Source: an uncultured Methanosarcinales archaeon (GTDB lineage: Archaea; Nanobdellota; Nanobdellia; Woesearchaeales; JAGWAF01). From it: a stretch of DNA of 64,000 nt. The stretch is taken from the NCBI GenBank assembly GCA_964359785.1, contig CAYHWL010000001.1, positions 2,422 through 66,421 of the forward strand, read 5' to 3'. The notes under the pieces were generated by a model. The model was not told where the DNA came from, did not search any database, and saw only the letters and a list, made by a program, of their open reading frames with translations. The translations under genes were made by a program, and so were the position numbers. Shown here piece by piece: positions 5,592-47,360 of this stretch (the stretch's first letter is position 1; every line of letters starts with the position of its first letter).

Positions 5592-5647
5592 GCCAAAATC
5601 AATGCCGATTTTGATTTATAAACTATTCGACGAGAGAAACAATATCT

Positions 5648-6139: not shown

Positions 6140-6378
6140 TTTACAAGACAGCATTTTTGTTTTATTGAGGCGACATCAGGGCATACGAATTGTTTTGCGG
6201 GCACAGCGCAATCAGAGGTTTCTGCCATGCAGGCCCCGTTCTTCTGCTCGCAGCTATTCACGTTTGTTTGGAAGTTTCCTGTCTGTTTTGTGAGGATTAG
6301 CCCCAAAACAAGCAACACTAATAACACGAGCACTGCGATGACTATTGTCGATAATGCCAATTCTTGTCCTTTTCGCAT
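6136..6378 (-). CDS. small archaeal type IV pilin (class III signal peptide), candidate major pilin
   Basis: N-terminus MRKGQELALSTIVIAVLVLLVLLVLGLIL (KG|Q followed by a hydrophobic helix). 80 aa with a Cys-rich C-terminus (…KCCLVK). It is a paralog of the 8565..8846 gene. Confidence 0.7.
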   Translation of the reverse strand: MRKGQELALSTIVIAVLVLLVLLVLGLILTKQTGNFQTNVNSCEQKNGACMAETSDCAVPAKQFVCPDVASIKQKCCLVK

Positions 6379-6413
6379 ATGAATTCACTTCCAAAGTGGG
6401 TTTTTATGTCTTG

Positions 6414-6563
6414 CTATGGTTTGAGTTTGCTGATCATGTCCACCCCTCCTTGGGCCAAATTGTAGGGCTTCTGTCCGAATATGTACAACAAGATCACAAC
6501 GGCTACTAGCATCAAGATTATCTCGATTATATGATCCATGATGATATTGCCTTTCTTGTTCAT
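6414..6563 (-). CDS. 49-aa pilin-like mini-protein (not in the ORF track)
   Basis: Hand translation gives MNKKGNIIMDHIIEIILMLVAVVILLYIFGQKPYNLAQGGVDMISKLKP with stop TAG at 6414..6416. Its start ATG (6561..6563) overlaps the upstream gene's TGA in an ATGA arrangement. It is paralogous to the adjacent 49-aa gene. Confidence 0.45.
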   Translation of the reverse strand: MNKKGNIIMDHIIEIILMLVAVVILLYIFGQKPYNLAQGGVDMISKLKP

Positions 6564-6709
6564 GGCATAAGCCTCCATCCGGAGACAATCGTCTTGAATC
6601 CTCCTTGTTCATATGCGAGAATCATTAATAGCACTAGCAATAACACGGCCACAAGGATGAATTCGCCAAGGTGATCCATTACGATGCTTCCTTTATGGTT
6701 CCTTCCCAT
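6560..6709 (-). CDS. 49-aa pilin-like mini-protein (not in the ORF track)
   Basis: Hand translation gives MGRNHKGSIVMDHLGEFILVAVLLLVLLMILAYEQGGFKTIVSGWRLMP with stop TGA at 6560..6562. It shares the motif KGxIxMDHxxExIL with its tandem paralog. Confidence 0.45.
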   Translation of the reverse strand: MGRNHKGSIVMDHLGEFILVAVLLLVLLMILAYEQGGFKTIVSGWRLMP

Positions 6710-6744
6710 ACCTTTCCAATGAGATCCAATCTTCTTAATGATTT

Positions 6745-7659
6745 CTATTTAGTGCGCACTTCAGTGCATCCCATCCTCTCCAAAGAATTTCTTTCAAGCG
6801 GAACGAACCATACGCTTGAATACCATTGGAATTGGGTGCTCTTCACGTAGGTGCTTAGCACGGTGGGTATCATGCTTCCTAGGGCCAGCAGTCCTCCTTT
6901 GAACTGCAACGCTCCCCCAACAGCCACCCCCGTGTATTGCAACATTGCCACGCCTGTCCACGCACTTGCTGCGATGACAGCCCCTCCTGTATACATGACT
7001 CCAAGGCCCATGATAGCCCCAGCGGCAGGAATTAGCGCCGTCTGTAGTGTATCAGTGAATACATCAAGAGAATCTCTTCCTTTGGCATGATAGAATATGA
7101 CCGCGTATTGGTCTTGTTTTGTCGGATCTATATAGTCTGCTGTTTTATGTTTCTCGAGCTGGCTCAACACCTCATTGGAGAATGTGGCGACACCTGCAAG
7201 TGATTCAGCGTAAGTCTTGGTCGATCCTGGTATCTTGGTAGAGAATAGATAACTATTCATTCCCGCTAACGTATTTTTCTTGTCAGAGAAATCGACATAG
7301 TCGCAGATCTGGCAATAAGCGCCAGGTCCACCATACAGTTCCAGTTTTCCATTGCCAAATTGGTTAAAACAAGTCATCATCGACTGTGCTATCCGCGTTT
7401 TAGCCTCCCTCTGACTGCTTTCACTTGAAAGGTCCCCGATCTTCACATTTCGGACAGGACAGTTGAGTTTTGCAGGAAAATCATAGAGTTTGGTGTGGAA
7501 GCTTGCCGCGGTGTAGACGCTGTCCCTGCATTTCTCATAGGGTATCCTCTCGTCGATAGCTTGTTGGACGTTTGAGAAGTATATCATTGCCATCAGAAGT
7601 ATCACGACAGTGACGGCCAGAGCCACGACGCTAGGCATCGTTATGTCCCCTTTTCTCAT
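6745..7659 (-). CDS. pilin-like protein, start at internal ATG (MRKGDITMPSVVALAVTVVILLMAMIYF)
   Basis: The internal ATG at 7657..7659 overlaps the upstream stop TGA at 7656..7658 (ATGA). The N-terminus is a class III-like signal (RKGD followed by a hydrophobic helix). Confidence 0.55.
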   Translation of the reverse strand: MRKGDITMPSVVALAVTVVILLMAMIYFSNVQQAIDERIPYEKCRDSVYTAASFHTKLYDFPAKLNCPVRNVKIGDLSSESSQREAKTRIAQSMMTCFNQFGNGKLELYGGPGAYCQICDYVDFSDKKNTLAGMNSYLFSTKIPGSTKTYAESLAGVATFSNEVLSQLEKHKTADYIDPTKQDQYAVIFYHAKGRDSLDVFTDTLQTALIPAAGAIMGLGVMYTGGAVIAASAWTGVAMLQYTGVAVGGALQFKGGLLALGSMIPTVLSTYVKSTQFQWYSSVWFVPLERNSLERMGCTEVRTK

Positions 7660-8384
7660 TTTGGCTCCGTTGACAGTTGATAATATTCCTGACAAGCTAG
7701 ATTTGGTACGGTTTCAGTGGGTACAAACACGAGATGGCTCTGCGGTTTGTCATCCACTATCCTGCTTAGAAAGACGATCTCATGGGGTACTCCTTTTTGT
7801 ATGACACTCAAAGGTCGGACTGGCGCGTCCTGTCCAGGTAATGGGATATCGTTTAGCACCGGATTGAGGAACATATTTATGACAGAGAGTTTTCCAAACG
7901 AGGTGTCCAGATAATCTGAATATGTGATCTTGTCGTTTCCCAATAGTTTTGTCTTGGCAAGGTATTGTTTCATCTCTCCGACGGGTACGTCGCTCCCAAG
8001 TGTTATCCGTGAACAATCCAGACAATAGATTTCTCCGCTTCGCACCATCCGTGCCAGCTGATTCTTATTCCCATTCATCTTATCCCAGCAGTTGCGTAAT
8101 TCTTCGGCGATTTTTATCTTGAGTTCAAGATTCTCTCCATTGAGTGTCAATTTATTATAGGGGCAGTTGAGCACAGGCGGGTTGAATCCTTTCTTGAAGA
8201 GGCTCGATCCTGCTCCAGTGGGTTCGAGATAGTTGCTCCGCAGAACCACGCTTGTTTTGCACAATAAGGAGGGTGTGGCTTCATTCACAGATCCTTTATA
8301 CCATTGCGTCACGCCAGCTAGACCGATGATGACGACTAGCACGATTATCATCTCGACCAAAGTATACGCCTGTCCTTTCATCAC
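7656..8384 (-). CDS. pilin-like protein (MMKGQAYTLVEMIIVLVVIIGLAGV)
   Basis: The N-terminus has KG|QAYTLVEM followed by a hydrophobic helix, resembling type IV prepilins. It is the first gene of the lower array. The start is GTG at 8384 or ATG at 8381. Confidence 0.6.
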   Translation of the reverse strand: MMKGQAYTLVEMIIVLVVIIGLAGVTQWYKGSVNEATPSLLCKTSVVLRSNYLEPTGAGSSLFKKGFNPPVLNCPYNKLTLNGENLELKIKIAEELRNCWDKMNGNKNQLARMVRSGEIYCLDCSRITLGSDVPVGEMKQYLAKTKLLGNDKITYSDYLDTSFGKLSVINMFLNPVLNDIPLPGQDAPVRPLSVIQKGVPHEIVFLSRIVDDKPQSHLVFVPTETVPNLACQEYYQLSTEPK

Positions 8385-8564: not shown

Positions 8565-8846
8565 TCAGGCTTTCGATTTACAGCAACAGCGTGAGCCTTC
8601 CTGCACATCTGTGATGAATGCGCTTAGCTCATTTTCTCCGTCAAGACATGCCGTCCCTCTCACTGTCCCGCTCTCAAAATTTCGGGATTGACAGTTCGAT
8701 AAGCATGTGTTGGATTCGACTTTGGAGACCCCACCGCCGAATTTTGCTAGTTTTCCTGTGAATATCGCCACTAGGACCACTAGTACGATTAGCGCGATTG
8801 CCGCGACAACGATGACTGTGACTGATAATTCTTGTCCTTTTGCCAT
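8565..8846 (-). CDS. small archaeal type IV pilin (class III signal peptide)
   Basis: N-terminus MAKGQELSVTVIVVAAIALIVLVVLVAIF. 93 aa with a Cys-rich C-terminus (…RCCCKSKA). It is a paralog of 6136..6378. A TATA box lies about 25 nt upstream. Confidence 0.7.
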   Translation of the reverse strand: MAKGQELSVTVIVVAAIALIVLVVLVAIFTGKLAKFGGGVSKVESNTCLSNCQSRNFESGTVRGTACLDGENELSAFITDVQEGSRCCCKSKA

Positions 8847-13228: not shown

Positions 13229-13723
13229 TTAGGCGTCACAGATGTCAAGGGTCACTCTTATCGGGAGATTGCCCCCCAGTGACGCGGGGATTATCTGGCT
13301 CGCTTGGTCTTTTGTCCCTTTGCATTGTTTGCCAAGGGGTGTGTCTATGTCTCTTACGCCAGTTATTGTCAGATAGTACTGCTTGTTTTCTGGTACAAGT
13401 GCGATTTCTAGGACTTGTTTGTTTAGCACTGCGTTGATATATTGACAGCTGTTGTCCCCTCTGATATTCCCGATGTCGCTTGTGCATTTCGCCAATCGCT
13501 CACCTGCGCAGTCTTGCAGCAGTTGTCTAAATGTATTTTTTTGACAGCCTGTGGTGGTGCCAAGCATTGTGTTGAGGAAGCTTGCTGCGAGTCTTTTTTG
13601 TTCATATCCGTGCTGGATATTCTCTGTGGGTTTGTTGATGATAGAAAGCGCGAACAATACCCCCAGGCTCACGAGTATCACTATGATCGCAAGCCCCATT
13701 ATCTCCATCTGTCCCCTACGCAT
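13229..13723 (-). CDS. pilin-like protein (class III signal peptide MRRGQMEIMGLAIIVILVSLGVLFAL)
   Basis: N-terminal KRG|Q followed by a hydrophobic helix. It overlaps its upstream neighbour. Confidence 0.6.
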   Translation of the reverse strand: MRRGQMEIMGLAIIVILVSLGVLFALSIINKPTENIQHGYEQKRLAASFLNTMLGTTTGCQKNTFRQLLQDCAGERLAKCTSDIGNIRGDNSCQYINAVLNKQVLEIALVPENKQYYLTITGVRDIDTPLGKQCKGTKDQASQIIPASLGGNLPIRVTLDICDA

Positions 13724-14213
13724 AGATCCTCACCTTTAGTATTCCAAATGAGTATGTCTTCTTTGCGCTGTCCTGTATCAATACTGGGATGACGCTGGGT
13801 ATCACGGATGTGGCATTCGCCAGTTTGTTGTTGTATAATTGATAGGTATGCCTGTTGGGGTATATCTCTTCGATTGTGACATTCGTATTGCGAAAGACAG
13901 TGTAGTACTGTTCGCGTAAGGTAGCATTATTGTTCAATAACCATGTGAAATTGGCTATCTTGGCTTTATCAAAGCATCTCTCCACCTGTTCCCCTACCCT
14001 GATACAATCCAGTTCTGGGATAGTGCTTATTTTCTGCGAAAGCACTATTGTCTGCAATTGAAGCTCCCGTTCGTAGTCTTTTCCTGCCTGTGCTTTAGAT
14101 ATCAAAAAGTAGAATGAAAGCCCAAATGCGATGAGGAAAAAGAATATGATGAGGACTGCGATAGTCTCAAACATCTGTATCTGCCCTTTTCTTGTGGTTA
14201 TCACGGTTGCCAT
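13716..14213 (-). CDS. pilin-like protein (…TTRKGQIQMFETIAVLIIFFFLIAFGL)
   Basis: Class III-like signal peptide. 165 aa. Confidence 0.6.
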   Translation of the reverse strand: MATVITTRKGQIQMFETIAVLIIFFFLIAFGLSFYFLISKAQAGKDYERELQLQTIVLSQKISTIPELDCIRVGEQVERCFDKAKIANFTWLLNNNATLREQYYTVFRNTNVTIEEIYPNRHTYQLYNNKLANATSVIPSVIPVLIQDSAKKTYSFGILKVRIYA

Positions 14214-14214: not shown

Positions 14215-15255
14215 TTAGTATATCTCCGGACAGCTTTTCCTGATGTATTCCAGTGACATGGTGGATAATTTGCTTATGTCTCCTGTGATATTGGTGGCGT
14301 CAGTGGCGACGCGCGCATGCCAAGCGAGTGTTTGCAGTGCGTTCACAGGCATGTCATAGTTCATGCCGCATAGATCTTTGTTATTGAATGATTCTGCTCG
14401 CATGGAATAGATATCTGCAAGTGATGCCAGCCGGATATACGCTTCTCTCATGTTGCATGCGTATTGTTTGAAATCTTCGGTGAATATCGCGGCCAGCAGA
14501 TCTCCATCGCTTGCGAATTGTCGGTTTCCTGCCGCGTTCCAGTTGCCGTATTTGTCTTTTGCGAACCAGTATACCGCCTTATGGTCCATATCTATATTGA
14601 GACAGCTGTAATCCTGTCCTTCAAGGGTTGCCATGGTGGGGATATCCTTTGTGCATCCGCCTTGTCCTTGCAACAAGAAGAACACCAGCCTCAATTTTCC
14701 ACCGTCATTGCGTATGTTCTTGGCTCGGTTTACGGCGTCAAGTCCCGTGGCGTTGGCTCTGTTGATGTTGTCTGGGATCATAGATAGTATCCTTCGTATT
14801 TCTGGTGTCAATACTGGTACGGCCATGACGTATTTCACACGTTGATTGGTGGCTATCAAGAAATTCGTCACGCGGAATGGCGCGGCCCAATCGACTGAAT
14901 AGAGCACCATGTTTGGTCCTGTGATTGTTTTGGGCCCAAAGATCAAGGTATCCCCAAACTCCTTTGTTATCGACCCGATGCGGTATCTGCAATCACAGTC
15001 TTCGCAGGAGAAATCGACATCGAGTTCTGGGAATTCGATGAGTTGCGCTGTCCCTTTGGCGGTCTGGGCTCCAGCGGCGATTGCGGAGAGGTCAGATATC
15101 AGGCTCTCTGCGCTTGATTGCTCACTTGCGGTTTTTTGTTTTTGTATGAATCCAAAGAAGGTGATTAGTATTATTCCCCCTGCGATCAGGATAAATACCC
15201 AGTTGATGGGTACTTCTAATTGCCCGGCTCGGTTATTCATTGTTCTTCTTGCCAT
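14215..15255 (-). CDS. pilin-like protein (MARRTMNNRAGQLEVPINWVFILIAGGIILITFF)
   Basis: RAG|Q followed by a hydrophobic helix. 346 aa, Cys-containing extracellular part. Confidence 0.55.
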   Translation of the reverse strand: MARRTMNNRAGQLEVPINWVFILIAGGIILITFFGFIQKQKTASEQSSAESLISDLSAIAAGAQTAKGTAQLIEFPELDVDFSCEDCDCRYRIGSITKEFGDTLIFGPKTITGPNMVLYSVDWAAPFRVTNFLIATNQRVKYVMAVPVLTPEIRRILSMIPDNINRANATGLDAVNRAKNIRNDGGKLRLVFFLLQGQGGCTKDIPTMATLEGQDYSCLNIDMDHKAVYWFAKDKYGNWNAAGNRQFASDGDLLAAIFTEDFKQYACNMREAYIRLASLADIYSMRAESFNNKDLCGMNYDMPVNALQTLAWHARVATDATNITGDISKLSTMSLEYIRKSCPEIY

Positions 15256-15791
15256 TTGCCAACTTGTGTGGTCTTTCCAAGTCCCTCCAGACGCAAAGAG
15301 ACTGTTGATGACTCTATATTGTCTATGCAGAAGAATCCTTGGTTCTCAAGGACTGTTAGTGGCCCCACACGGATCTGTGTCTCGCTTGCGGGTTTGAGGA
15401 ATATGTTCTGGTCGCTTCCGCTTCGTACGGCGTCAGCCATTAGCGCGCTTTGGTTTTCAGCCAGGAAATCTACGCGGGTCTTGTATGTGTTAGGGCCTGT
15501 CTGTATCTGGGAGTCTGTGTAGCTACTTCCCTGGAACATCCTGTTATCGACAAAGCATATGGTCTCAAAACCAGGGCATAGCGTCAAGTCCATCCTGCGC
15601 ACGGTCCCGACAGATGCGGTCACTCGTTCTATCTGATTTTTGAGCGTGTTTTGCGTTTCTATCACGCAGACTTGACTTTTCATCTCTCCAAGAGTGGAGA
15701 TAGACCGATATCCATAGAGGAGGATCATGGCGAATATTATCGCGCCTAATACAAACAGTAACGCTTGTCCTAGTATCTGGGCACGTCTCAT
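15237..15791 (-). CDS. pilin-like protein (MRRAQILGQALLFVLGAIIFAMILLYG)
   Basis: Class III-like N-terminus. Its start overlaps the giant gene's stop (15788..15791). Confidence 0.6.
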   Translation of the reverse strand: MRRAQILGQALLFVLGAIIFAMILLYGYRSISTLGEMKSQVCVIETQNTLKNQIERVTASVGTVRRMDLTLCPGFETICFVDNRMFQGSSYTDSQIQTGPNTYKTRVDFLAENQSALMADAVRSGSDQNIFLKPASETQIRVGPLTVLENQGFFCIDNIESSTVSLRLEGLGKTTQVGKWQEEQ

Positions 15792-18700
15792 TTTCTCCTC
15801 TTCACAGCTGGTTTCTTCCAGGTCTCAAATTGCTTTTGGATCAGGTCTTTGTTCTTTTCCCAATATGCCGCGGTGATCCGGAGTTTCTTGAATAGTTCTT
15901 CAAGGTCTTTCTTGCTTAACTTGCCTTTGCGTGCCAGATCCAATTTTTTCTTTAGCTCTTCACGTTCAGAATCGGTGAATCTCATCAAGGCCATGTTCTC
16001 CAGTGCCTGCATTTCAGGTGATAATGTGCTCTCTTCTCCTTTTGAGATGCCGCTAAAGCTTCTTAATTTACCAAATGCGCTTGTGTCAGGAGCGGCTTCT
16101 TTTTTGCCCAGTTTGCCTACAGCGATGTACTCCTCTTTTCCGGCGCCAGCCGTCCGTGTTGTCACGCTTGATTCGGGCAGGTTCTTTGCCATTCTTCCTG
16201 TTTCGGGTGGTGTTGTCATGCCAGAGCTAAGGTCCAGCTTTGGCATTTGCTCTTTTTTCTTCTCTTTATTCACTACATTTGAAGCGTTTTTAGTCCATAG
16301 GTAATAGAAGATGAATCCTCCTATGATGATTATGCTTGCTGTGAGTATCCATTTTGCCCAGTCGAAAGCTGGTGTGCTTGTGGCGTCGGTTGGATTGCTT
16401 CCCCCTATTATTTCTGCGCCATCGTGGTAGCCGTCTCCGTCTGTGTCAGAATTTGTGGGGTCCACAAATGATCCTGTCCTGTGGTAATAGTTGTATTCAT
16501 CCAGGTTTGTTGCGCCGTCTCCATCCGAGTCTTCCATAGCATCAGCGCTGTTCTTTGGATCAAATCCATATTTGCTCTCCCACCAATCAGGCACGCCATC
16601 TCCATCGGAATCAGGCGGTATGCTATTTGGGTCAGCTGGATTCGAGCCGGCAAGCACTTCTTCGCCATCTAGGTAGCTGTCTCCATCAGTGTCATTCTTG
16701 TGAGGATCCATATCTTGGCCGTTCTGGTTGAAGTGGTTGTATTCTTCCAGGTTTGTGAGACCGTCGCCGTCTGGATCTCCTGTCGCGTCATTAGGGTCGT
16801 TTGGATCAAGGTTATATTTTTTCTCCCACCAGTCAGGCATGCCATCCATATCTGTATCTTTGTCATCGCGTGGATAGCTTTTGCTGTCTGTCGGGTCTGT
16901 CCCGGCGTCGATCTCTGCCTTATCATTGAATCCATCCCCGTCGGTGTCAGCTTTGTTTGGGTCTATCTCTTTTCCGACCGTCTTAAGATACCTATACTCG
17001 GCGAAGTTACTTAGGCCGTCATTGTCATTGTCGAGATTTGCGTCCAAAGGATCGTTTGGATTGAGTCCATGCGCGCGTTCCCAATCATCGGGCATTCCGT
17101 CTCCATCGCTATCGACGTCGCTTGGTCTGCTGTTTGGGTCTATGGGGTTGGTGTTGGCTTTTACTTCAAGGCCATCAGGCGCCCCATCGCCATCGGTGTC
17201 CGCTTTTTTGGGGTTTATGTCTCTATTGTTGTCTTTGAAATAATTGTATTCTTCAAGATTGGTCATTCCATCCCCATCTGAATCCATACTTGCATCGCTG
17301 GCAGAATTAGGATTGAGGCCGTATTTTATCTCCCACCAATCAGGCATGCCATCTGCGTCCGAATCCTTGCCAGAGTCTTGGCAAGTGTGCGTGTCTGCTA
17401 TGGTTATCATGCATGCAAGTCCGCTGCCGCAATCGCTTGTTGTCTTGCATTGCAGGCCGTCTCCGCATTTTGTGGGGCACGCCCCTCCGCAATCAGTGTC
17501 GGTTTCTGTGCCATCTGTCGCATTATTCTCGCATCGGGGTGTCGCTTGACAGATGCCATAGGTGCATCGGCCGCCATTGCAGTCAGAGTCGTAGATACAG
17601 CTTGAGATATTGCGGCATTCGTCAAGGGTGCGGCAAGTGCGGTTTGGACGACTAGTGTCGTTGGATATCACAACAATTGTCCCATTTGACAGCACGATAG
17701 TGTTGTTATATGTCACAACAATTGTACCATTTGGCAGCACGGTAACAACAGGACACGCGCTGCAGCTTCCACCGCAATCTATTGCGGTTTCATCGCCGTT
17801 TCTTGCGCCATCTGTGCAGGAGACTGTCCTGCATATTCCGCCTAAGCATGAGGAGTTTAGACAATCCCAATTTACCGAACATCGCAAACCGTCTTTGCAC
17901 CCTAGGCAATTTCCGCCGCAATCAGTGGCTGTCTCTCTGCCGTCTGTTCGGTTATTGGAACACGTGAGTGGGCGTGAGGCGTTGTCTATTCTGACACCTG
18001 TTGACCGCATGATTGAGGAGTTTCTGCCAGCTCTATCTACTGCCTGCATCTCGAAGTAATAGCTCTCTGTGTTTCTAAGAGTTAGTCCTGTGACGACATT
18101 CGCGTGTTCAGGATTATTCTCACTCACTGGACCTCGTATGGCTGATCCGTTCTGGGCTCTTAGAGTATATGTATATCGGACTATTCCAGTATCCGGATCG
18201 CTTCCGTTATACCATAACGGCAGTCTGTCAAAGTCCGCGCTCACTTGAGAGTCTTCGAATTGTGTGCTGTCATTCACGATTAACATTGTGGGATCGCGCA
18301 AGTCGATCCAAAAATCAGTATTTACCTCTCCAGTCTCCGGTACTCCGCTTATCACGGTATTGCCTAGTGTCCTGCAGTTTGTCCGGGTGTTATGTCGTCC
18401 GCCGGAATTGACATCGAAATTGGTTGTGAGGTTGTGGACTTGGCTTCCGGCGCTCTCTGTGAGACGCACCACAGTGTCTATGGCAAATGAGCAGGTAGCG
18501 TCTTTATTAGATCCTATAGAGAATAATGCGGTGGGTATCCCAAATATCTTTCCGCTGGGAGTGTAATCAGTCAAGATGAACTGTCTGCCGGGGTCTACCC
18601 TAAATAGGATTGTGGCGCCAACTGATCCAAGACCTGATGCGCTCTTGCACGCGACCCGATAAGTATAGCTTCCTACATTTCCCACTGTCAGGTCTGTGAT

Positions 18701-21700
18701 GTGACTGTTGAGTGCCATGAAATTATATCCCGAAAATGTGTTTTCCATTTGGTCATAATTAGCGGTTGTATTGGAATATTTGCAGAATGTCTCTATATCC
18801 GTGCTGACTTTTAATGTGGTTGTGAGTGGTGATTGGATTATTGGGTTTGGGTCTGCGACCGCGCTGATTATCACAGGTGTCTGATCTTGCACTATTAGTG
18901 TGAAGTCCTGCCTTATGTCACGATTTTGTGCATCGACGCATCTGACAAGGAAATCAAACCGCCTGTTCCGATTCGATGGAAGAGGCGCGATCTCATTGAA
19001 ATTCGTTATCACATGCTGTGATGATATTGCGTCATTATCCATCTTTCTCCAATTCGCGAAATCAGGATATATGAATCCACCAGGATCGAATAAGAATCTG
19101 CATTTTGTGAGCGTGAGTGTCTCCACTCCAACATCAAAAGTGAAATTTGGCGCGGCTCCATATGGAGGCAGATAAAGCCTTATCGGACTTGCATGTGCGG
19201 TGACCATGAAGTCAGCTCGGCTTGAGATCTGGTTCAAGGCGTCATCTTCAGCTTGTAGAAGCAAAGTGTTTGGCCCATCATCAAGTGTCAGCGATAATCC
19301 GTATAGGTTGCCTTGGGTATTTTGGCGGCTTAGATTAGTTGTGATTTCCACAGGTTCTATCCTGCTGGAGAATTGGTTTATCGTAGTATGTACCAATGTG
19401 ACGTTCTTGAGTGTGACTGGTTCGGAGAATCTTAAGACTAGCATCCCTGCGCTAGTGTCTATATTCGCGCCATTCAAGGTTATCGCGTTTATGGTGGCGT
19501 TCACAGTTGGTGGGGTGAGGTCAACTATCAGTATAGTCTGGTCAGGTTGATCCATGGGTATGTTGGTATTGCCAATGGCTCGCATCCTGAATGTATATGT
19601 GCCCTCAAGCAGGTCTTCTATAGGGGAGAAACTGAAGTTATATTTTGGCACCATCACGGTTTGATCTGCTGCGATCACTCTTGTGGGCGTCCCAAATATT
19701 CTTTCTGTGACAGTTGATTCGACATTCATTCCGATTGTGATAATAGGCCGTCTATCCGATGTTCGGTAGGTGTCATTTGCTATTCTTTTTGCGTGAGAGA
19801 CATTCTTGCCTATAACAAGCGGCCCATAGCATCCCTTGCATGCGCGGAAAGTTAGCTCATTGATTATCTCAAGATTATGTGAAGGATCCTCTCCGAAGAA
19901 TCGAAGTGTGGTGTCTCCATCAAATAATGGTTGTGTCACCAATGAGCCGTCCACAAGTCCGGCCTCGCTAAAGGTCAATCTATCGGCAGTGGTTGTTTTA
20001 GAGGGGATGCATGGCGTGGCTCCAGGGGCATAGGTGCAGTATTTTGTGGGCGCGCTAAGTCCAGATATGATGTTCGCTGAATACAGCGCATTCACGCGGT
20101 CAAGTCTTGTGATTGAGACATAGTCTATTCTGGATGGGTTTGTGGTGCTCATTGGCACCATGCGCGTTTCGGGGGGGAAATAATCCATTTCACAGCTTCG
20201 TAGTTTTGCGTCTCCTGCTCCGTATGGGCAGTCGCGGAAGTCATTGTTTTGTTCTGCGCCATCCGCGTTTTTGGCGCATTTCTTGATGTCGTTCCACTGG
20301 CATACGCCTATATTGCACTGGTCCGTGCTGCGTATGAGTATCCTATTCGTATTTCGGTCTATTGTGATTCCTGGACCTGCGCAGTCTTCCCTTGTCTTGT
20401 AATCCAGACAGGTTGCGTTGATGCATGAGAAGCTGGATCCTGATCCTTGAGAATTGTAGAAGCAGGGGAATTGCGAGGTTGACAATGCGTCGCTTTTCGC
20501 TTTTGTGCAGGCATCAAAGATTTCATTGTAGGATCTATGAGGAGGTCGGTTATTGTCCGCTCCAAGCGTGCCCTTGGCATCGCAATAATAGCAATTGGTT
20601 TGGCTCGTGTCTATGCATACCCCTATTCCGATGGCTGGGAAGATGTCTTTCCATTGACAGTTTTTCACTCTGCAATTATCTTTTTCACATGCGTTTCTTG
20701 TCTTATAATCATAGCAAGCATTGGTAGGTTCGCATTGGAAGCAGTAATCGATCAAAGAAGCGCTTCTATCATAGAAGCAGTATCGGTAGTCCTTTGAATT
20801 TCCTTCGCATATATCGCTGGTGATGGATAACCCAAAATGAGGCGTGACATTGTGGCAAGTATCAAATGGCACACAGGCCGGCCCGGCAGATTGTATCGCG
20901 CAATAGCTGTTGGTTTGGCTGCAATCAAGATTGCTGACTAATTGATTCAATGGATTACAGCTATACGCTTTTTTGAATCGTCCAAAAAAAGAGTCTACTA
21001 CCCTCTGTTGGAAGTTCGAGGAGAATGCTGATTTGTCGACATTCGAGTATCCGTATGAAGTGAGATAAGTGGAGAACTGTTGATAGAACACTGGGCCATT
21101 GATGCAGAAGAGGGCATCGGTGGTTTTTCCTTGGCATTCGAGATCCCCCAGGTATGAGCTTGCGAATGTGGGATTTGATTCCTTGCCACCTTTGAATAGC
21201 ACTTTGACTTGGTAAGTGAAAGATTTGTTCCATATGAGGTCAGGACGGTTATCCAGAAATCCCGTCTCGTTTGCCGCGAGTATTGTGCTTGTCGTGAACA
21301 TTGTGGTGGCGCAATTGTCTCCCTGGCATCTGCTGACATTGAATCCGTTTATTTGTTCTGTGCAGTTTGATTTCCAGACTATCTGGAGGGATCGTTCTCC
21401 TCTGATAGGATGTATCCCCAAGTCGTATACTGGGGGCGTATAATCAGGATTTCCGCATTGATATGAGATGTTCACGAATGTGATGTTGACTTTAGTCTGG
21501 TTGCACACCACATAACAGATGTCCTTTAAGTCTATGGCTTGAGTTATTCCGAATATAGATGGGCTTGTTGGAGTGAAATTCTTTGAGGTATCGCATTCGC
21601 TCACTTGCAACATCGTCCCCTTTTGTGCTGTGCCATTCGAGTTACAGCAGCATACATTTGAACCGCTTTGAGGGCTCGCGCTTGGCAAGGTCACAATATA

Positions 21701-21757
21701 TAGTATAGCGCACGCTACAAAGAGCAACATGAATCCTCTTTTTTGGCGTTTTTCCAT
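15788..21757 (-). CDS. giant (1989 aa) Cys-rich surface protein with four thrombospondin-type-3 Ca-binding super-repeats, a C-terminal TM anchor and a Lys/Glu-rich cytoplasmic tail
   Basis: Sec-type signal peptide (MEKRQKRGFMLLFVACAILYIVTLPSA) and many N-x-S/T sequons. Three Cys modules of the form TDGxETxxDCGGxCxxC are present. There are four repeats of about 84 aa of the form DSDGDGMPDWWExKYGLNPN…DTDGDG. A TM segment (ILTASIIIIGGFIFYYLW) is followed by a KE-rich tail. Confidence 0.8.
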   Translation of the reverse strand: MEKRQKRGFMLLFVACAILYIVTLPSASPQSGSNVCCCNSNGTAQKGTMLQVSECDTSKNFTPTSPSIFGITQAIDLKDICYVVCNQTKVNITFVNISYQCGNPDYTPPVYDLGIHPIRGERSLQIVWKSNCTEQINGFNVSRCQGDNCATTMFTTSTILAANETGFLDNRPDLIWNKSFTYQVKVLFKGGKESNPTFASSYLGDLECQGKTTDALFCINGPVFYQQFSTYLTSYGYSNVDKSAFSSNFQQRVVDSFFGRFKKAYSCNPLNQLVSNLDCSQTNSYCAIQSAGPACVPFDTCHNVTPHFGLSITSDICEGNSKDYRYCFYDRSASLIDYCFQCEPTNACYDYKTRNACEKDNCRVKNCQWKDIFPAIGIGVCIDTSQTNCYYCDAKGTLGADNNRPPHRSYNEIFDACTKAKSDALSTSQFPCFYNSQGSGSSFSCINATCLDYKTREDCAGPGITIDRNTNRILIRSTDQCNIGVCQWNDIKKCAKNADGAEQNNDFRDCPYGAGDAKLRSCEMDYFPPETRMVPMSTTNPSRIDYVSITRLDRVNALYSANIISGLSAPTKYCTYAPGATPCIPSKTTTADRLTFSEAGLVDGSLVTQPLFDGDTTLRFFGEDPSHNLEIINELTFRACKGCYGPLVIGKNVSHAKRIANDTYRTSDRRPIITIGMNVESTVTERIFGTPTRVIAADQTVMVPKYNFSFSPIEDLLEGTYTFRMRAIGNTNIPMDQPDQTILIVDLTPPTVNATINAITLNGANIDTSAGMLVLRFSEPVTLKNVTLVHTTINQFSSRIEPVEITTNLSRQNTQGNLYGLSLTLDDGPNTLLLQAEDDALNQISSRADFMVTAHASPIRLYLPPYGAAPNFTFDVGVETLTLTKCRFLFDPGGFIYPDFANWRKMDNDAISSQHVITNFNEIAPLPSNRNRRFDFLVRCVDAQNRDIRQDFTLIVQDQTPVIISAVADPNPIIQSPLTTTLKVSTDIETFCKYSNTTANYDQMENTFSGYNFMALNSHITDLTVGNVGSYTYRVACKSASGLGSVGATILFRVDPGRQFILTDYTPSGKIFGIPTALFSIGSNKDATCSFAIDTVVRLTESAGSQVHNLTTNFDVNSGGRHNTRTNCRTLGNTVISGVPETGEVNTDFWIDLRDPTMLIVNDSTQFEDSQVSADFDRLPLWYNGSDPDTGIVRYTYTLRAQNGSAIRGPVSENNPEHANVVTGLTLRNTESYYFEMQAVDRAGRNSSIMRSTGVRIDNASRPLTCSNNRTDGRETATDCGGNCLGCKDGLRCSVNWDCLNSSCLGGICRTVSCTDGARNGDETAIDCGGSCSACPVVTVLPNGTIVVTYNNTIVLSNGTIVVISNDTSRPNRTCRTLDECRNISSCIYDSDCNGGRCTYGICQATPRCENNATDGTETDTDCGGACPTKCGDGLQCKTTSDCGSGLACMITIADTHTCQDSGKDSDADGMPDWWEIKYGLNPNSASDASMDSDGDGMTNLEEYNYFKDNNRDINPKKADTDGDGAPDGLEVKANTNPIDPNSRPSDVDSDGDGMPDDWERAHGLNPNDPLDANLDNDNDGLSNFAEYRYLKTVGKEIDPNKADTDGDGFNDKAEIDAGTDPTDSKSYPRDDKDTDMDGMPDWWEKKYNLDPNDPNDATGDPDGDGLTNLEEYNHFNQNGQDMDPHKNDTDGDSYLDGEEVLAGSNPADPNSIPPDSDGDGVPDWWESKYGFDPKNSADAMEDSDGDGATNLDEYNYYHRTGSFVDPTNSDTDGDGYHDGAEIIGGSNPTDATSTPAFDWAKWILTASIIIIGGFIFYYLWTKNASNVVNKEKKKEQMPKLDLSSGMTTPPETGRMAKNLPESSVTTRTAGAGKEEYIAVGKLGKKEAAPDTSAFGKLRSFSGISKGEESTLSPEMQALENMALMRFTDSEREELKKKLDLARKGKLSKKDLEELFKKLRITAAYWEKNKDLIQKQFETWKKPAVKRRK
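16200..17370 (-). repeat. four tandem coding super-repeats of about 250 nt (TSP3-like DxDxDG modules) inside the giant gene
   Basis: Recurring DNA motifs such as ccaatcaggcatgccatc (encoding DGMPDWW) appear at about 16590, 16830, 17080 and 17330 on the plus strand, a period of about 250 nt. Confidence 0.6.
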
Positions 21758-21761: not shown

Positions 21762-23156
21762 TTAACCTAATTTCTTGACGATTGCTGGGAATATAAGCGT
21801 TTGGCTGTCCGCCAATTCATCGTCGGTGACATTGACGCTAAAGACAAATCTCATAGATGGTTCCCTCGCCACAAACTCCACCATCAAGAAGGGGATGGGT
21901 TTTTCAGGGTTTGCAGGGTCCCTTGGTTCTGGGGCGACGCTTGGTTCAGGCAGCTCCATGGTGTACTCGAATCGCAATGGATTATCATCAGGATCTATCG
22001 CGTTTAAGGTGATGCATAATTGTTGGGGAGAGCATAATGGAGCATTCTTGATGCAAAACACTTGATTGACGATCCCGATTGTAGGCTCTATCTTGTTCCC
22101 CTCCTTATCTTCTGTTGCACAGACCACGAAATTATTGACTGCGTCACGGCGTGCGGAATCATTTAGGAGGAACAGCGCAGGCCTCCTGTTTTTTATCGCG
22201 AATCGGAATTCAAATGGACGCTCCAATATGTTGCTATATGGGTCTCTGACGATGTAGAGATAATCCAATCGGTTCACATTTGGCTTTCTGTCATAGGTCA
22301 GGTTTTCTACTTTGATCTCGCTGATATTTATCGAGAGATTGCTCACGTCTTGATCTAACAACTGGCTGGTGAATTCTATTATTTGCCCAAGCCTGACTGG
22401 ATAGTCTACCTCAAAATTTTCCAGTTTTGACTCGGCTTGTGTGACTGTATTGGATAGGTTGATTGGCCAATTGAGTTGGACCGTTACGTCGGCTAGATTG
22501 ACTGTGACTGTTGTGTTTGGGCCTGATTTGCGTATTCTTATATTGCCCTTGGATAGGTCCTGCCAGCGTACGCAAGTCTGCATCTTGTTTGTGATATATA
22601 CTTCCAACTGCTCCTGGATGCTTCTGGAGAATGTCTTGGTGAGATGGGTGAGTCTATTGTATCCTGCGAATGCCAATGTGTTGTATCCCGGGCTGCATGG
22701 TTGTGTTATGCATTGGGTCTCCGGAAAGCCCGCCCAGGGATATTCCGGAGGGCTGGATTTATAGAATCCAAATAGATCCCCCATAGGTCCTACGACTGCA
22801 TATGGCACGTCCTTGTCTTCATAGCGCAGGTATTCTTGCCCAAAACATGGAGGATAATCAGATACTCCAAAGCACACCTGATTAAATGATTTGGTGGGGC
22901 CGCCCTGTGTGTCGTATATCACCCCTCCTTGGTCCCCTAGTAATGCCAGTCCCTTGCGCGCCGCAAGATCCAGGCAATATTTCACTTCCTGTTTGATAGG
23001 AAGGATCTCTTCCGCTCCAAGCTGCGTCTTTGCTATGGTTTGGCTTGTGGTTTGCGCGATGAAGTTATTATAGATATAATAGAATGAGCTAAACAGAAAG
23101 ATCAGTACTATGCATATGATTAGGAATACTGTGACTTGTCCGGTCTTCTTTCGCAT
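21762..23156 (-). CDS. hypothetical secreted protein with a class III-like signal (MRKKTGQVTVFLIICIVLIFLF); start at internal ATG
   Basis: The internal Met (residue 36 of the tracked ORF) gives a KKTG|Q plus hydrophobic-helix N-terminus. The stop lies 4 nt upstream of the giant gene's start. Confidence 0.55.
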   Translation of the reverse strand: MRKKTGQVTVFLIICIVLIFLFSSFYYIYNNFIAQTTSQTIAKTQLGAEEILPIKQEVKYCLDLAARKGLALLGDQGGVIYDTQGGPTKSFNQVCFGVSDYPPCFGQEYLRYEDKDVPYAVVGPMGDLFGFYKSSPPEYPWAGFPETQCITQPCSPGYNTLAFAGYNRLTHLTKTFSRSIQEQLEVYITNKMQTCVRWQDLSKGNIRIRKSGPNTTVTVNLADVTVQLNWPINLSNTVTQAESKLENFEVDYPVRLGQIIEFTSQLLDQDVSNLSINISEIKVENLTYDRKPNVNRLDYLYIVRDPYSNILERPFEFRFAIKNRRPALFLLNDSARRDAVNNFVVCATEDKEGNKIEPTIGIVNQVFCIKNAPLCSPQQLCITLNAIDPDDNPLRFEYTMELPEPSVAPEPRDPANPEKPIPFLMVEFVAREPSMRFVFSVNVTDDELADSQTLIFPAIVKKLG

Positions 23157-24137: not shown

Positions 24138-26225
24138 CTACCTTAGTTTCGCGCTAAAGTCTCTCCATACATCCTTGAGATTGCCCCATGAGCTGGTTGT
24201 GAATGCTGCGAATTTCAGGGTATTCCCGCTTTGTGTGCAGTCCCTTGGCAGGTCGGTCCTTAGGTTGTTGTTTAGAAGATCGCACCCGGTCATCCCAGTT
24301 GGGTCGGTGATATTGATATTGACATATCGCGCCGCAGTGTAATCTACTTTGCTTCCATTGAGGTATCTTTGTCTTTGGATGAAGCTAAAGAGGTCTTTTG
24401 GAGTCTTTCGGTTATAATATATCGCGTCAAATACTGTGGTGCTGGACAACGTGCTTTGCATATCCGCAAGAGTGGGTTTTCCAGCATAATTGACAAGATC
24501 CGCGAATCGGGTGGCGAGTGCTGGCCATCTTCTGGTTTCCACCTCATTTGGCCCAATTGAGCTTATCGCGCCATAAGGCGTGTAGATCAAAGTGTTAAGT
24601 CCCGGATTATAGGATATCCCGTTTCCGCATGGATGGAACAGACTGTCGCCTATGGCAAGCGCGTTATCACATGAATGTATACTCTTCCCAAGTGCGGGCA
24701 GGAAGCTTTGCATGCTGTCATTCACTGCCACATTCAGGCTGGTGCCAAAAGCCGCTCCCTTGGTGCTTGTGAGTACACAGAACTGGTTCACACAAGAAGT
24801 CTTTGTCCCTCTGATGACGCAAGGTTTCTCTAAGTAGCTCCTTACAGGCCCTGCGTTTGGAAGCGCTTCATAGTCGATGAAATTGAGGGTCTCGTTGAAA
24901 TAATCGCAGAATATGGAGTAATTGTTCACCGAGTTTATCTCTGCGTAATCCACTAGGTACATGGCAAGAAGTTTGGTCCTGCTTGACCAGTTTCCGGATG
25001 CGCAATAATACTGTTGGATTGAGGTCTTGTCATTTATGCAGGCTGGTTGTTTGGTTGTGTAAAAAGAGTCCGGATCATCCGCTAAGGATATGTTGCCTGC
25101 GGGATTGACAAGACACTGTGTCATATTGGGGCAGTATCCCTTATTTTGGTCATTCCAAGTGTACTTTACAGGCTGGTACACCCAGTCTCCAGCTATACAT
25201 CGATAGCCTCCGCTTGTGGTCGGTCTTGTTTCAAAGGTTTGGTCGGCTATGCAGGAGATGCCATTCCAGCAGCCTGTCTCTGGGCAGCATTCGACATTGT
25301 TTGCTGAATTGTTGAGTGGGTATAGAAGTTGGTTTCTCACTTCTGGGATCACATATTTTGGTTTGAGTTTGTTTTGTTTTGTTGTGAGTGTCCATGTCCC
25401 GTTGAATGAGCAATAGTAATTGACATTGACTGCGCGCGTGGCATTGTACGCCAAAGTGCAACGGTTTGTATCGTTGATGAGGGGTTTGCCATTATGTGAA
25501 TCCTTCATGGTCAATAGATTTGGATTTGTCTCGTTTAGTTGGCATCCGAAGAATTGGCCAAGTATGGTGAGCACGCTTCCGTTTGTGTTGTTCACGGTAT
25601 ATCCATTCGCCGCGAATCTGCTTTTGAAACATGCTCCGCTTTCATCGTCTTTATAGTCAGGTGGATTTGGGTCTTGGTATGATTCATTTGGCCAATCGTA
25701 TTTCTCGCCGCAACATTTCTTGCCTGTCCATCGTAGATTTGCGAGTTTGCAGGTTAACGGATCTTTGTTGTCAAGGTCCTGTGCCCATTCAGCGTCTTTT
25801 GCGCAGTAGAAAGTAGGGCTTGACGGATTTTCGCTGATGCTGATGGTGATTGGGCTTGCTGCTGATATTGAGCCAGGCGGTCCAGTATTGATATACATCT
25901 CTATGGCTTTTATTGCCACAAAACCAGTCCTCCCGATTTTTTGGCTATCCAATTCACAGCTCATAGTTGAGGCATCAGAATCATAATCCAAGATGATAGT
26001 ATGGTCCGAATTAGGCGCCCATGAGGAGACATCAAATACAGTTTCTACCCTGCCTGCCCCTTTGACATTCTTGCAGATGATTTTCGTGTCAACCTTTTCG
26101 ATCGATAGGTAGGCATCAGGCGCTTCCTTGGCATGGAAGAGCACCCTATTGAGGTTCTCCTTGCCTTCCCATGTGTTATGGATTGAGAGCACGATGTGTC
26201 CTCTTGTTGAATTGTAATTTGCCAA
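24138..26225 (-). CDS. C-terminal 695-aa part of a secreted Cys/N-glycosylation-sequon-rich protein (in frame with the 26343..27056 ORF; separated by a single TGA)
   Basis: The tracked ORF starts at a TTG codon and has no signal peptide of its own. It carries many NxS/T sequons and Cys residues typical of an extracellular protein. It is in the same frame as the upstream ORF. Confidence 0.55.
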   Translation of the reverse strand: MANYNSTRGHIVLSIHNTWEGKENLNRVLFHAKEAPDAYLSIEKVDTKIICKNVKGAGRVETVFDVSSWAPNSDHTIILDYDSDASTMSCELDSQKIGRTGFVAIKAIEMYINTGPPGSISAASPITISISENPSSPTFYCAKDAEWAQDLDNKDPLTCKLANLRWTGKKCCGEKYDWPNESYQDPNPPDYKDDESGACFKSRFAANGYTVNNTNGSVLTILGQFFGCQLNETNPNLLTMKDSHNGKPLINDTNRCTLAYNATRAVNVNYYCSFNGTWTLTTKQNKLKPKYVIPEVRNQLLYPLNNSANNVECCPETGCWNGISCIADQTFETRPTTSGGYRCIAGDWVYQPVKYTWNDQNKGYCPNMTQCLVNPAGNISLADDPDSFYTTKQPACINDKTSIQQYYCASGNWSSRTKLLAMYLVDYAEINSVNNYSIFCDYFNETLNFIDYEALPNAGPVRSYLEKPCVIRGTKTSCVNQFCVLTSTKGAAFGTSLNVAVNDSMQSFLPALGKSIHSCDNALAIGDSLFHPCGNGISYNPGLNTLIYTPYGAISSIGPNEVETRRWPALATRFADLVNYAGKPTLADMQSTLSSTTVFDAIYYNRKTPKDLFSFIQRQRYLNGSKVDYTAARYVNINITDPTGMTGCDLLNNNLRTDLPRDCTQSGNTLKFAAFTTSSWGNLKDVWRDFSAKLR

Positions 26226-26342
26226 GGTTCCAGTACGTACCGATTCGGTGGCAAGAAGGCTTGCCGCATAGAGTTCTCCGGCGGTATGGCTTTCTCCGAT
26301 CTGTGCGACCCTTCCATCTTGGGTGTCATATGCTGGATCGTC

Positions 26343-27056
26343 TCAGGAGCATTCCAGGATGTTCCTATAGCTGTCATTGTTGCTGGGGGTGTCTTCCGCG
26401 CAAAGATATGAATGGGAGGGTTTGTCGCCCACCCCTGTCTTGGTCATGTTCATCAAAGTGAACGTCTTATATGTATTCACGCTGCCTAACCCTATGCCGC
26501 ACAGATAAAAATCATTTCCATCGCTAAGGATTTGCGCTTGGGCGCATTGGAGATTGAATATGTCTGCTTTGTTCGAGATTAATTTTGCCCATTTCCAGGT
26601 TTCGGGGCCTATCGAGGGATTCACGCATGCTTCGCTGCCTATGCGCATCCCGCAGTTGTCCGTCGGATGAGCGCCGCAGCATTTGGAATTAGCAGTGGAC
26701 CAGTTCACGGTCTTGTTCGCGAAGCATACGGGAAGTGTGAGGTAATTGTTTCCTCTGCAATATGTGGAGGTATCCCACGAGACGGCATGCGTGTTTAGTT
26801 CCGCGTAATTCGCCTGATCATTTCCGCCGACGGTGAATTTGAGTTTGTACTGTCCCTCTTGAGAGCATACTTTGGCCACATCTTGTATCGGAAGCTTACA
26901 TTCTCCATTTCCTTCGCATGTGTTTGTCTCCATCGCCACAGAGGCATCCGGTGCTAGAAGCTGCAGTTTGCTTGATTGCGCGGACACAGCTATCGAGAAG
27001 ATTATACAGACAGCTAAATAGAACACGATAACCAGGTTTCTCCTGTCGATATGCAT
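26343..27056 (-). CDS. N-terminal 237-aa part (with signal peptide) of the same secreted protein; ends at an in-frame TGA
   Basis: N-terminus MHIDRRNLVIVFYLAVCIIFSIAVSAQS (signal peptide). A TATA box (ctttatatata) lies about 25 nt upstream of the ATG at 27054..27056. The stop TGA at 26343..26345 is followed in frame by DDPAYDTQDG…. Confidence 0.6.
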   Translation of the reverse strand: MHIDRRNLVIVFYLAVCIIFSIAVSAQSSKLQLLAPDASVAMETNTCEGNGECKLPIQDVAKVCSQEGQYKLKFTVGGNDQANYAELNTHAVSWDTSTYCRGNNYLTLPVCFANKTVNWSTANSKCCGAHPTDNCGMRIGSEACVNPSIGPETWKWAKLISNKADIFNLQCAQAQILSDGNDFYLCGIGLGSVNTYKTFTLMNMTKTGVGDKPSHSYLCAEDTPSNNDSYRNILECS

Positions 27057-28349: not shown

Positions 28350-28518
28350 TTTTTTACTGCTCAACTCTGATTTCTATGATCTTGGGAAGATCGAGGATTT
28401 CATACATGCAAAAGATGAAGGGCCAAGATTTTACAGGCAGGATGGCATCTTGCGGGTTGAAGGTGAAAGGCAAGAGCTCTTGATGATCGCAAATGCCGCG
28501 TTGCATCTTTCGAGGTGA
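28333..28518 (+). CDS. hypothetical 61-aa protein (candidate precursor peptide or chaperone)
   Basis: Small ORF overlapping both neighbours, consistent with translational coupling. Confidence 0.3.
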   Translation: MNGMVDFLLLNSDFYDLGKIEDFIHAKDEGPRFYRQDGILRVEGERQELLMIANAALHLSR

Positions 28519-29893: not shown

Positions 29894-29964
29894 CCGCACT
29901 TCGGGGCCAGGATCGAGATGTTAAAGTAGGTTTTTTATATTCGAATATCGCTCTTTCTCTCATG

Positions 29965-47311: not shown

Positions 47312-47360
47312 GCCCATCTGTGTATTACCTAGGAGATACTGACCGGGAGCGCCAGTGAGA

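Follow-up and report, generated by a model that had tools for sequence, protein, structure and literature searches.

The window analysed here, that is, the whole 64,000-nucleotide stretch of contig CAYHWL010000001.1 (assembly GCA_964359785.1) deposited under the name of an uncultured Methanosarcinales archaeon, carries on its minus strand a gene for a 1989-amino-acid (aa) surface protein, which we call the giant. Our central finding is that this gene stands in the middle of a set of seven genes which, judged by the order they keep across archaeal loci, is a conserved operon centred on the giant. The set further comprises a second large secreted protein, here called the partner, and five small proteins which, by their N-terminal motifs, are prepilin-like, i.e. 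bear class III signal peptides. The giant itself, which belongs to a DPANN archaeon (Woesearchaeota in the nomenclature of NCBI), is predicted, from its sequence and from a structural model, to be a type I membrane-anchored, disulfide-rich cell-surface protein, and it is probably part of a cell-attachment device.

The open reading frame (ORF) of the giant is intact, running on the minus strand from an ATG at 21757 to a TGA at 15788-15790. An earlier note on this DNA, made from the letters alone, had proposed a type I architecture for its product, and the sequence, Pfam, the alignment of homologs and an AlphaFold2 (AF2) model all support it. The gene and the parts of its product, including thrombospondin type 3 (TSP3) repeats, domains similar to immunoglobulin (Ig) and fibronectin type III (FN3) folds, and a transmembrane (TM) helix, are as follows.

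15788..21757, minus strand: giant surface protein gene, 1989 aa (ORF list and translation)
21671..21757, minus strand: Sec-type signal peptide, aa 1-29 (hydrophobic stretch at aa 8-27; homolog N-termini)
21158..21670, minus strand: N-terminal CCC cluster and first FN3-like beta-sandwich, aa 30-200
20168..21157, minus strand: family-specific Cys-rich head domain, aa 201-530 (about 30 invariant Cys)
17972..20167, minus strand: putative rod of an estimated seven or so Ig/FN3-like beta-sandwich domains, aa 531-1262 (AF2 and profile matches)
17378..17971, minus strand: three 8-Cys modules, aa 1263-1460 (motif search; Cys invariant across the family)
16367..17377, minus strand: four TSP3 super-repeats, aa 1461-1797 (Pfam PF18884)
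16292..16360, minus strand: C-terminal TM helix, aa 1800-1822 (hydropathy; present in 52 of 52 aligned family members)
15791..16291, minus strand: basic K/E-rich cytoplasmic tail, aa 1823-1989 (composition; last ~70 aa conserved)

The signal peptide that had been proposed is evident from basic residues at the N-terminus followed by the hydrophobic stretch at aa 8-27, and all aligned members of the family begin with a classic Sec signal peptide ending '...A|DE.GCC'. A class III signal on the giant itself was considered and rejected; namely, its homologs carry leaders of the Sec type, not [KR]G-Q. The head domain (aa 201-530) has no match in Pfam or NCBIfam. An AF2 model of aa 1-640, computed from a 51-sequence alignment, reaches a mean predicted local distance difference test score (pLDDT) of 85.9, with 85-97 in most blocks of the head region, and places beta-sandwiches at about aa 105-200 and 530-640 around a mixed, Cys-rich core. 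Further along the chain, the family profile matches titin FN3 just N-terminal of the Cys modules (E=1.7e-10) and, weakly, the BIg domains of SiiE (2yn3, E=7.8e-6) in mid-protein, and homologs of the giant show matches to Big_13, Big_3_3 and PF09136.

Cysteines number 75 in total. Three modules of the form TDGxETxxDCGGxC had been claimed, and three are present, starting at aa 1271, 1319 and 1414 (DCGGxC at aa 1279, 1327 and 1422), but just two of them match the pattern exactly, the third reading NGDETAIDCGGSC. No match to these 8-Cys modules was found in Pfam, NCBIfam or, by phmmer, the PDB. Numerous Myxococcota proteins show the core pattern E[STA]D[VIT]DCGGxC, and dozens of them (L034, L040-L083) carry the 8-Cys module at 31-39% identity. 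One Altiarchaeota record has the module as well; the Myxococcota copies often match the flanking giant sequence as well, at aa ~1185-1550. This distribution suggests, at the level of sequence, that the module is a cassette common to domains of life that has no Pfam model. A 45-nt tandem duplication at 17648-17741 (aa 1339-1370; 2.1 copies with an 85% match by Tandem Repeats Finder) encodes a 15-aa unit, 'L(P/S)NGTIVV..N.T', that splits Cys module 2 midway, and six of the N-x-S/T glycosylation sequons of the giant lie in or beside it. As for the abundance of sequons noted earlier, the excess is real: shuffling with the composition preserved gives 24.2 +/- 4.3, and the 36 sequons of the giant are reached in about 1% of shuffles. 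It is modest, though, and particular to the giant, the family median being 16.

The four super-repeats of about 84 aa likewise hold up: cut at the first Asp loop of each triplet, the TSP3 region yields repeats of 82-86 aa with three Asp-rich loops each; the loops, in 4 x 3 register, recur about every 28 aa. Eleven of them are strict DxDxDG motifs (aa 1465-1776), while the ninth loop is degenerate (DTDGDS). In the Pfam search that the earlier note had advised, TSP3_bac (PF18884) is the sole significant family (121.1 bits against a cutoff of 25, E=1.4e-35, five stretches); a phmmer search of the PDB with this region returned no solved homolog. From the motifs we infer that the DxDxDG loops are Ca2+-binding sites. 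The C-terminal TM helix, too, is there by hydropathy, followed by a K/E-rich tail of 167 aa (K 17.5%, E 11.3%), which the earlier note had suggested to be coiled-coil-like.

A homolog search with aa 1-1460 as the query, i.e. with the TSP3 region left out, gave 55 homologs of 990-2498 aa. Their identity to the query is about 30%, the alignments take in 52-100% of it, and for 46 homologs the coverage is 80% or more. In an alignment of 52 sequences, about 70 Cys are invariant or nearly so, and the TM helix is found in all 52 members, as is a basic tail, whose length ranges from 99 to 284 aa and whose net charge ranges from +6 to +72. Most members have one TSP3 super-repeat, and four are found only in the giant and its closest relative; across loci, the length varies from 1560 to 3186 aa and the TSP3 copy number 1-4 fold. 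The last ~70 aa are conserved in a subgroup that includes the giant ('GKL(T/S)K.E.EELFKKLRITA.YY..HK.EL..EL'), which suggests a folded cytoplasmic domain at the end of the tail; a homolog search with the tail alone returned only a near-identical fragment. In an exhaustive phmmer search with the head (aa 200-560), 215 representative clusters matched at E<=1e-3 and 103 of these at E<=1e-30, and the head domain sits nearly always at residues ~180-600, with weaker matches at ~500-900, in full-length proteins that mostly measure 1500-3500 aa. All named homologs of the giant are from metagenome-assembled genomes (MAGs) of Candidatus Woesearchaeota or Nanoarchaeota. A handful of genome-scan records that hold the full-length module are titled otherwise, namely 'uncultured Methanosarcinales' (binchicken MAGs) and, in one case, 'Binatia', and we read these, tentatively, as mislabelled or mis-binned. 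One homolog record is named 'Hain_H51_02um' and may, as a guess from the name alone, be of groundwater origin. A literature search found nothing on this woesearchaeal giant family or on its TSP3 repeats.

The giant ORF is a real gene. The possibility that it is an assembly chimera, which the earlier note had named as grounds for discarding the protein, fails on three counts. First, the super-repeats differ among themselves, with identities of 48-61% in protein and 54-64% in DNA, and because they are so diverged at the DNA level, mis-assembly of the super-repeats is rejected. Second, the closest homolog (L001) aligns with the giant over its whole length in a single BLASTP segment at 46.7% identity and carries the same 11-motif TSP3 expansion. 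Third, two independent low-coverage contigs from different assemblies in the European Nucleotide Archive (ENA) are collinear with positions 15189-21256 of the window at 97.7% identity, a match that takes in everything from the Cys modules to the tail, all four super-repeats and the TM helix included, and crosses the junction with the next gene. On the side of an artefact, the exact giant protein is absent from the gene-position index. Both ENA contigs (L084 and L085, from a near-identical strain) stop at window position 15189, within the gene for a 346-aa neighbour, and this shared end may reflect a strain-variable point or a drop in coverage.

The remaining genes of the operon, given below in their order along the minus strand, stand on either side of the giant, and a candidate processing enzyme for the prepilin-like proteins is encoded upstream of them.

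31221..31934, minus strand: prepilin (class III signal) peptidase, Peptidase_A24 (PF01478, E=3.7e-9, 37.4 bits against a cutoff of 26.5)
24138..27056, minus strand: secreted Cys-rich partner of ~950 aa, with an in-frame TGA at 26343-26345
21762..23156, minus strand: prepilin-like protein of a ~400-aa family ([KR][GSA]-Q(I/V)T(I/L)F in 22 orthologs; two conserved Cys)
15237..15791, minus strand: prepilin-like protein, 184 aa ('[KR][AGS]Q.(I/Y)GQIFIYIL...YGY', ~28 orthologs; synteny; two conserved Cys)
14215..15255, minus strand: prepilin-like protein, 346 aa, in NCBI a 341-aa form ('KK(A/G)(F/I)E.QFNWIF'; four conserved Cys)
13716..14213, minus strand: prepilin-like protein, 165 aa ('[KR][AGS]Q(I/V).(M/I)(F/G)ETIAVL', ~29 orthologs; synteny; two conserved Cys)
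13229..13723, minus strand: prepilin-like protein, 164 aa ('[KR][AGS]QMEI(M/L)GLAIVV', ~29 orthologs; synteny; six conserved Cys)

Each of the five small families, with 18-31 orthologs apiece, starts with a leader that is short and basic, followed by a [KR][GAS]-Q junction and a run of about 20 hydrophobic residues, and their signatures include 'AQMEI(M/L)GLAIVV', 'AQIQMFETIAVL' and 'KKAFE.QFNWIF'. Such a class III signal with Gln at +1 is of the kind found in EppA-type archaeal pilins. For the ~400-aa protein the likely start is MRKKTGQ at 23156. The numbers of conserved Cys per family, in the order listed, are 2, 2, 4, 2 and 6, all of them even, which is consistent with extracellular, disulfide-bonded heads of these small proteins. 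An AF2 model of the 346-aa protein (pLDDT 83) consists of a 47-residue N-terminal helix, a beta-meander, an alpha/beta part and a helical part, and has no relative among solved structures. The pilin-like nature that had been ascribed to the neighbours finds support in the signal-peptide motif and the predicted N-terminal helix only, and not in any match to a pilin family model or a solved pilin structure. Pfam and NCBIfam gave no match at threshold for any neighbour of the giant in the module.

In the module, the first three genes encode a Sec protein of ~750-1100 aa, the ~400-aa protein and the giant, and the last four encode proteins of ~160, ~340, ~160 and ~160 aa. This order is the same in three loci by exact look-up and in about 25 archaeal loci of species-representative genomes. 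The module proteins are there just 24-32% identical to the copies in the window, with the order nonetheless kept. Spacing within the module is tight, the genes overlapping slightly or standing a very short distance apart. A motif-seeded scan of species-representative genomes gave about 30 full-length loci among its best 80 matches. The ~400-aa gene lies directly 5' of the giant in most loci with enough upstream flank, and the partner is the first gene of the module in about 22 loci, being up to 1728 aa long in one locus and divided into two ORFs in several. In four loci the module stands next to housekeeping genes (RNase P p30, PP-loop ATPase). Of the 4-nt overlaps with both neighbours that had been claimed, the downstream one exists, as an ATGA shared at 15788-15791, but on the upstream side the preceding gene ends 4 nt before the ATG of the giant with no overlap. 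The co-operonic arrangement with pilin-like genes nevertheless finds good support, and the proposed search for homologs with the same pilin neighbourhood returned what was looked for, since the order recurs in about 25 DPANN loci and the class III motif in all five small families.

One could argue that the giant stands alone and that its adjacency to the pilin genes is meaningless. After all, there is no direct evidence of interaction, and genes for surface proteins often cluster. That said, an identical order in about 25 loci at only ~25-30% protein identity is hard to explain without selection, and the 4-nt overlap and the 4-nt gap at the junctions of the giant likewise speak for a transcriptional unit. 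For these reasons, and in view of the collinear contigs, the diverged repeats and the full-length homolog set out above, we consider it very unlikely that the giant is either a stand-alone protein or an artefact.

Members of the partner family begin with a Sec signal peptide and carry a conserved motif at the C-terminus ('W.D(L/F)T.KLR'); 29 Cys columns are conserved in their alignment, and they are without a TM helix. A relationship of the partner to the giant family was tried and rejected (hhalign probability 1.4%). In the window, the gene is represented by two ORFs, 26343-27056 and 24138-26225, both of which match one 971-aa ortholog, and the TGA between them aligns with Gly ('EC.GD') in five of six orthologs and with Thr in the sixth. 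Likely, this TGA is a GGA-to-TGA nonsense mutation or a sequencing error, while read-through is possible. Recoding of UGA as Gly was rejected, as TGA is a normal stop here because the giant gene itself ends in it.

Could the giant be a PilY1-like adhesin at the tip of a pilus, carried out by the four downstream minor pilins? By analogy, a large Sec-exported non-pilin with Ca-type motifs, encoded directly before four minor-pilin-like genes, would mirror the fimU-pilVWX-pilY1 arrangement, and PilY-like adhesins have been proposed for archaeal type IV filament (TFF) systems (PMC4858521; 2026 survey). All the same, the TM helix and the highly basic 99-284-aa tail are found in 52 of 52 members, and such a tail could not pass the membrane. 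What is more, no PilY1/Neisseria_PilC or DUF2341 domain was found in the giant by Pfam at E up to 0.1, and the untethered upstream partner fits the role better, so that we regard a tip-located giant as scarcely probable at all.

The explanation that we favour, and that we hold to be somewhat likelier true than false, is that the giant is an anchored, Ca-stiffened adhesin or S-layer-like spacer that acts together with a minor-pilin set. The adhesin role is one that we infer for it. According to this explanation, the A24 peptidase would cleave the five prepilin-like proteins, and these would then form a minor-pilin set, either as the priming or tip complex of a type IV filament or as a short membrane-anchored collar, with the assembly machinery for the filament encoded elsewhere in the genome. 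The giant would remain anchored in the membrane, where Ca2+ bound to its DxDxDG loops would stiffen the membrane-proximal stalk, and the rod would project the conserved head tens of nanometres outward to bind a host cell or a surface. The untethered partner might serve as a pilus-associated, PilY1-like component, and the conserved tail as a cytoplasmic docking site.

Several observations weigh against this explanation. The partner gene is interrupted by the in-frame TGA in this genome, and the five small proteins match no Pfam or NCBIfam pilin or archaellin model at threshold. There is no TFF ATPase or platform gene in the 64-kb window, and a scan of the 10 kb around the module in about 40 archaeal loci found no T2SSE-type Walker motif (T2SS, type II secretion system); a filament is therefore not demonstrated. 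Finally, the TM anchor and the 167-aa charged tail are incompatible with incorporation into a pilus, so that the physical link between the giant and the pilins is purely contextual.

Alternatively, the giant could be an S-layer (surface-layer) or envelope protein, or an S-layer-like sheath at the base of a pilus, i.e. a lattice-forming, Ca-stabilised glycoprotein. The prepilin-like proteins would then stay in the membrane as partners through which other structures are tied to the giant. FlaF and FlaG play an analogous role for the archaellum. A signal peptide, a large ectodomain, sequons and a C-terminal TM anchor make up the classic layout of archaeal S-layer glycoproteins, and this is the layout of the giant. 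Its family is conserved across many genomes and keeps a stable position beside the housekeeping genes in the four loci mentioned, and C-terminally anchored, Cys-rich proteins of type IV pilus (T4P) loci have been termed 'S-layer-like' (PMC4858521). On the other hand, the long conserved tail and the highly conserved distal head suit a receptor or adhesin better than a lattice subunit. The length is very variable (1560-3186 aa, with TSP3 copies varying 1-4 fold), and no S-layer family model in Pfam or NCBIfam matches the giant. Universality within the order, moreover, is not shown by about 30 full-length loci in the best 80 scan matches. Taken together, we consider an S-layer protein unlikely, if still a serious contender.

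A bolder variant of the favoured attachment role, and one that we rate as distinctly improbable, would make the module an undescribed attachment organelle of Woesearchaeota and Nanoarchaeota, an analogue of focal adhesions composed of a minor-pilin-only assembly and an integrin-like giant receptor. In such an organelle, the five prepilin-like proteins, whose folds would be without a solved relative, would be physically coupled to the giant, its Ca-dependent ectodomain would bind the host, and force or signal would reach the interior of the symbiont through the conserved basic tail domain.

The module extends on its downstream side into a wider island of class III-like ORFs, of which the main features are listed here.

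8565..8846, minus strand: candidate small major pilin, 93 aa (MAKGQELSVTVIVVAAIALIVLVVLVAIFTGK...; class III motif scan)
6136..6378, minus strand: candidate small major pilin, 80 aa (class III motif scan)
457..8384, minus strand: second block of about nine class III-like ORFs (N-termini and motif scan)

The 93- and 80-aa ORFs have 'KGQEL' class III leaders and very hydrophobic helices, match nothing in Pfam, and resemble a tandem set of three ~90-aa genes located downstream of the L004 module (18772-19672). The ORFs of the second block (372, 202, 159, 330, 650, 162, 80, 316 and 241 aa) likewise have no Pfam matches, and three of them are weakly linked by BLAST to ORFs that come after the module in L003, in L004 and in a number of further loci. 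The class III motif scan passed 16 long ORFs within 457-23156, counting the giant with its Sec leader, and one elsewhere, so that ORFs of this kind are strongly concentrated in this part of the window; the remaining passers are short antisense or unassigned ORFs. The one outside the pilin island is a 390-aa ORF at 43492-44664 on the plus strand ('MRRGQSGNEAWVVIGLITLLLIF'), which is followed, at 44676-49497, by four ORFs without family matches.

The gene directly after the module, at 10362-13190 on the minus strand, encodes a 942-aa protein whose N-terminal region is long, which has hydrophobic segments and which weakly matches an APH-like kinase (E=0.014). L018 likewise has a homolog after its module (17171-19027), and the protein is possibly a signalling partner. 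Between the partner and the ~400-aa prepilin-like gene sits a 269-aa bitopic protein (23274-24083, minus strand) with a cytoplasmic N-domain, a TM helix and a Cys-rich exterior, which is absent from this place in L001; in L003, a 232-aa ORF directly upstream of the partner gene has an N-terminus that, by eye, is loosely like it. The stretch that separates the module from RNase P p30 carries on its plus strand, at 28029-31182, a radical SAM/SPASM enzyme, a small protein upstream and an ORF of 450 aa, and a radical SAM gene with an HxsD-family gene is also found beside the module in L001 (3568-5535). The window also holds archaeal housekeeping genes, which include those for RNase P p30, an archaeal-type phenylalanyl-tRNA synthetase, an eRF1-family protein (aRF1/Pelota type), RFC, a PAN-like AAA ATPase, FEN1, a tRNA-intron endonuclease and Cdc6/Orc1, with an IS66-family transposase among them at 39920-41311 on the plus strand (E=1.6e-26). 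Scans of the window for tRNAs and Rfam families came back empty.

Why should such a family matter? Woesearchaeota are among the most widespread uncultured archaeal groups, and DPANN archaea are believed to spend their lives attached to other cells. To our knowledge, the molecules that mediate this contact are almost unknown outside a few cultured pairs. The giant family, with at least 215 diverged clusters, is thus a concrete candidate for the contact apparatus of Woesearchaeota, and a testable one because of its fixed seven-gene context, its conserved head and its conserved tail. Furthermore, the five new prepilin-like families and the 8-Cys module in common with Myxococcota are invisible to Pfam/NCBIfam annotation.

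It is instructive to compare the giant and its module with known systems. In its stalk, the giant resembles two surface proteins of Myxococcus, namely MtsD and, from the gliding adhesion complex, CglD, which have the same bacterial-type TSP3 repeats (NCBIfam MtsD, E=1.2e-18; CglD, E=1.5e-17). Membership of the giant in the CglD/MtsD families was rejected, its scores being far below the cutoffs (62.7 against 400 bits and 66.6 against 800 bits), and Amuc_1099 falls just short as well (48.8 bits against a cutoff of 50). All three models match the giant only at aa 1420-1642, in the TSP3 region and the last of the Cys modules, and CglD and MtsD are bacterial outer-membrane lipoproteins, whereas the giant is predicted to be an archaeal type I membrane protein. 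With the giant adhesins whose Ig repeats are stiffened by Ca2+, that is, SiiE of Salmonella and RTX adhesins such as LapA, the giant has in common a long, putatively Ig-like rod and a proposed distal binding region, but it has no RTX or type I secretion system (T1SS) signal; instead it bears a Sec leader and a TM anchor, is rich in predicted disulfides and keeps its Ca-type motifs in a separate TSP3 stalk. Eukaryotic thrombospondin and COMP type 3 repeats also consist of tandem, Asp-rich calcium loops of the DxDxDG type, but the giant matches TSP3_bac and not the eukaryotic TSP_3 model, its repeats are without interleaved Cys, and it has no TSP C-terminal domain.

As for the operon, the bacterial minor-pilin operon fimU-pilVWX-pilY1 and the GspHIJK pseudopilins of the T2SS, in which GspK is the larger one, suggest themselves as counterparts. 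By analogy, there are again four small pilin-like genes in a fixed order with one of them larger (~340 aa, like GspK), and, in the case of fimU-pilVWX-pilY1, a large Sec-exported non-pilin with Ca-type motifs that appears coupled to the set. We found no sequence or structural similarity to either system, and in contrast to fimU-pilVWX-pilY1, the giant is TM-anchored with a cytoplasmic tail, and the module has five prepilin-like genes rather than four, with another large protein encoded upstream.

The closest parallel is that with the T4P loci of Thermoproteales (subclades 4B/4E/4G) described by Makarova et al. in 2016 (PMC4858521). Those loci encode two large proteins, one C-terminally TM-anchored and called 'S-layer-like', the other with a signal peptide only and called 'adhesin or minor pilin', alongside small minor pilins, with conserved Cys in nearly all components. 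The same group has described DPANN pilin islands as unrecognisable by sequence, and a 2026 TFF survey lists large adhesin-like proteins in several archaeal TFF loci. Compared by description, the module is alike in its two large secreted proteins, its small class III proteins and its Cys throughout, and the giant agrees with the 'S-layer-like' description of PMC4858521 in its signal peptide, single C-terminal TM helix, conserved Cys and pilin locus. In contrast to the Thermoproteales loci, the module belongs to DPANN archaea, a different phylum, no ATPase or platform gene adjoins it, and the giant has TSP3 Ca-type repeats, 8-Cys modules and a long conserved cytoplasmic tail. In this sense, the organisational theme of a large anchored, Cys-rich protein beside minor pilins is already described from crenarchaeal pilus loci, and for this reason the module holds no conceptual surprise. 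What is new is found at the level of families, namely the head domain, the 8-Cys modules, the TSP3 stalk and the conserved tail of the giant, together with five prepilin-like families outside existing models and the fixed order of seven genes in which they stand.

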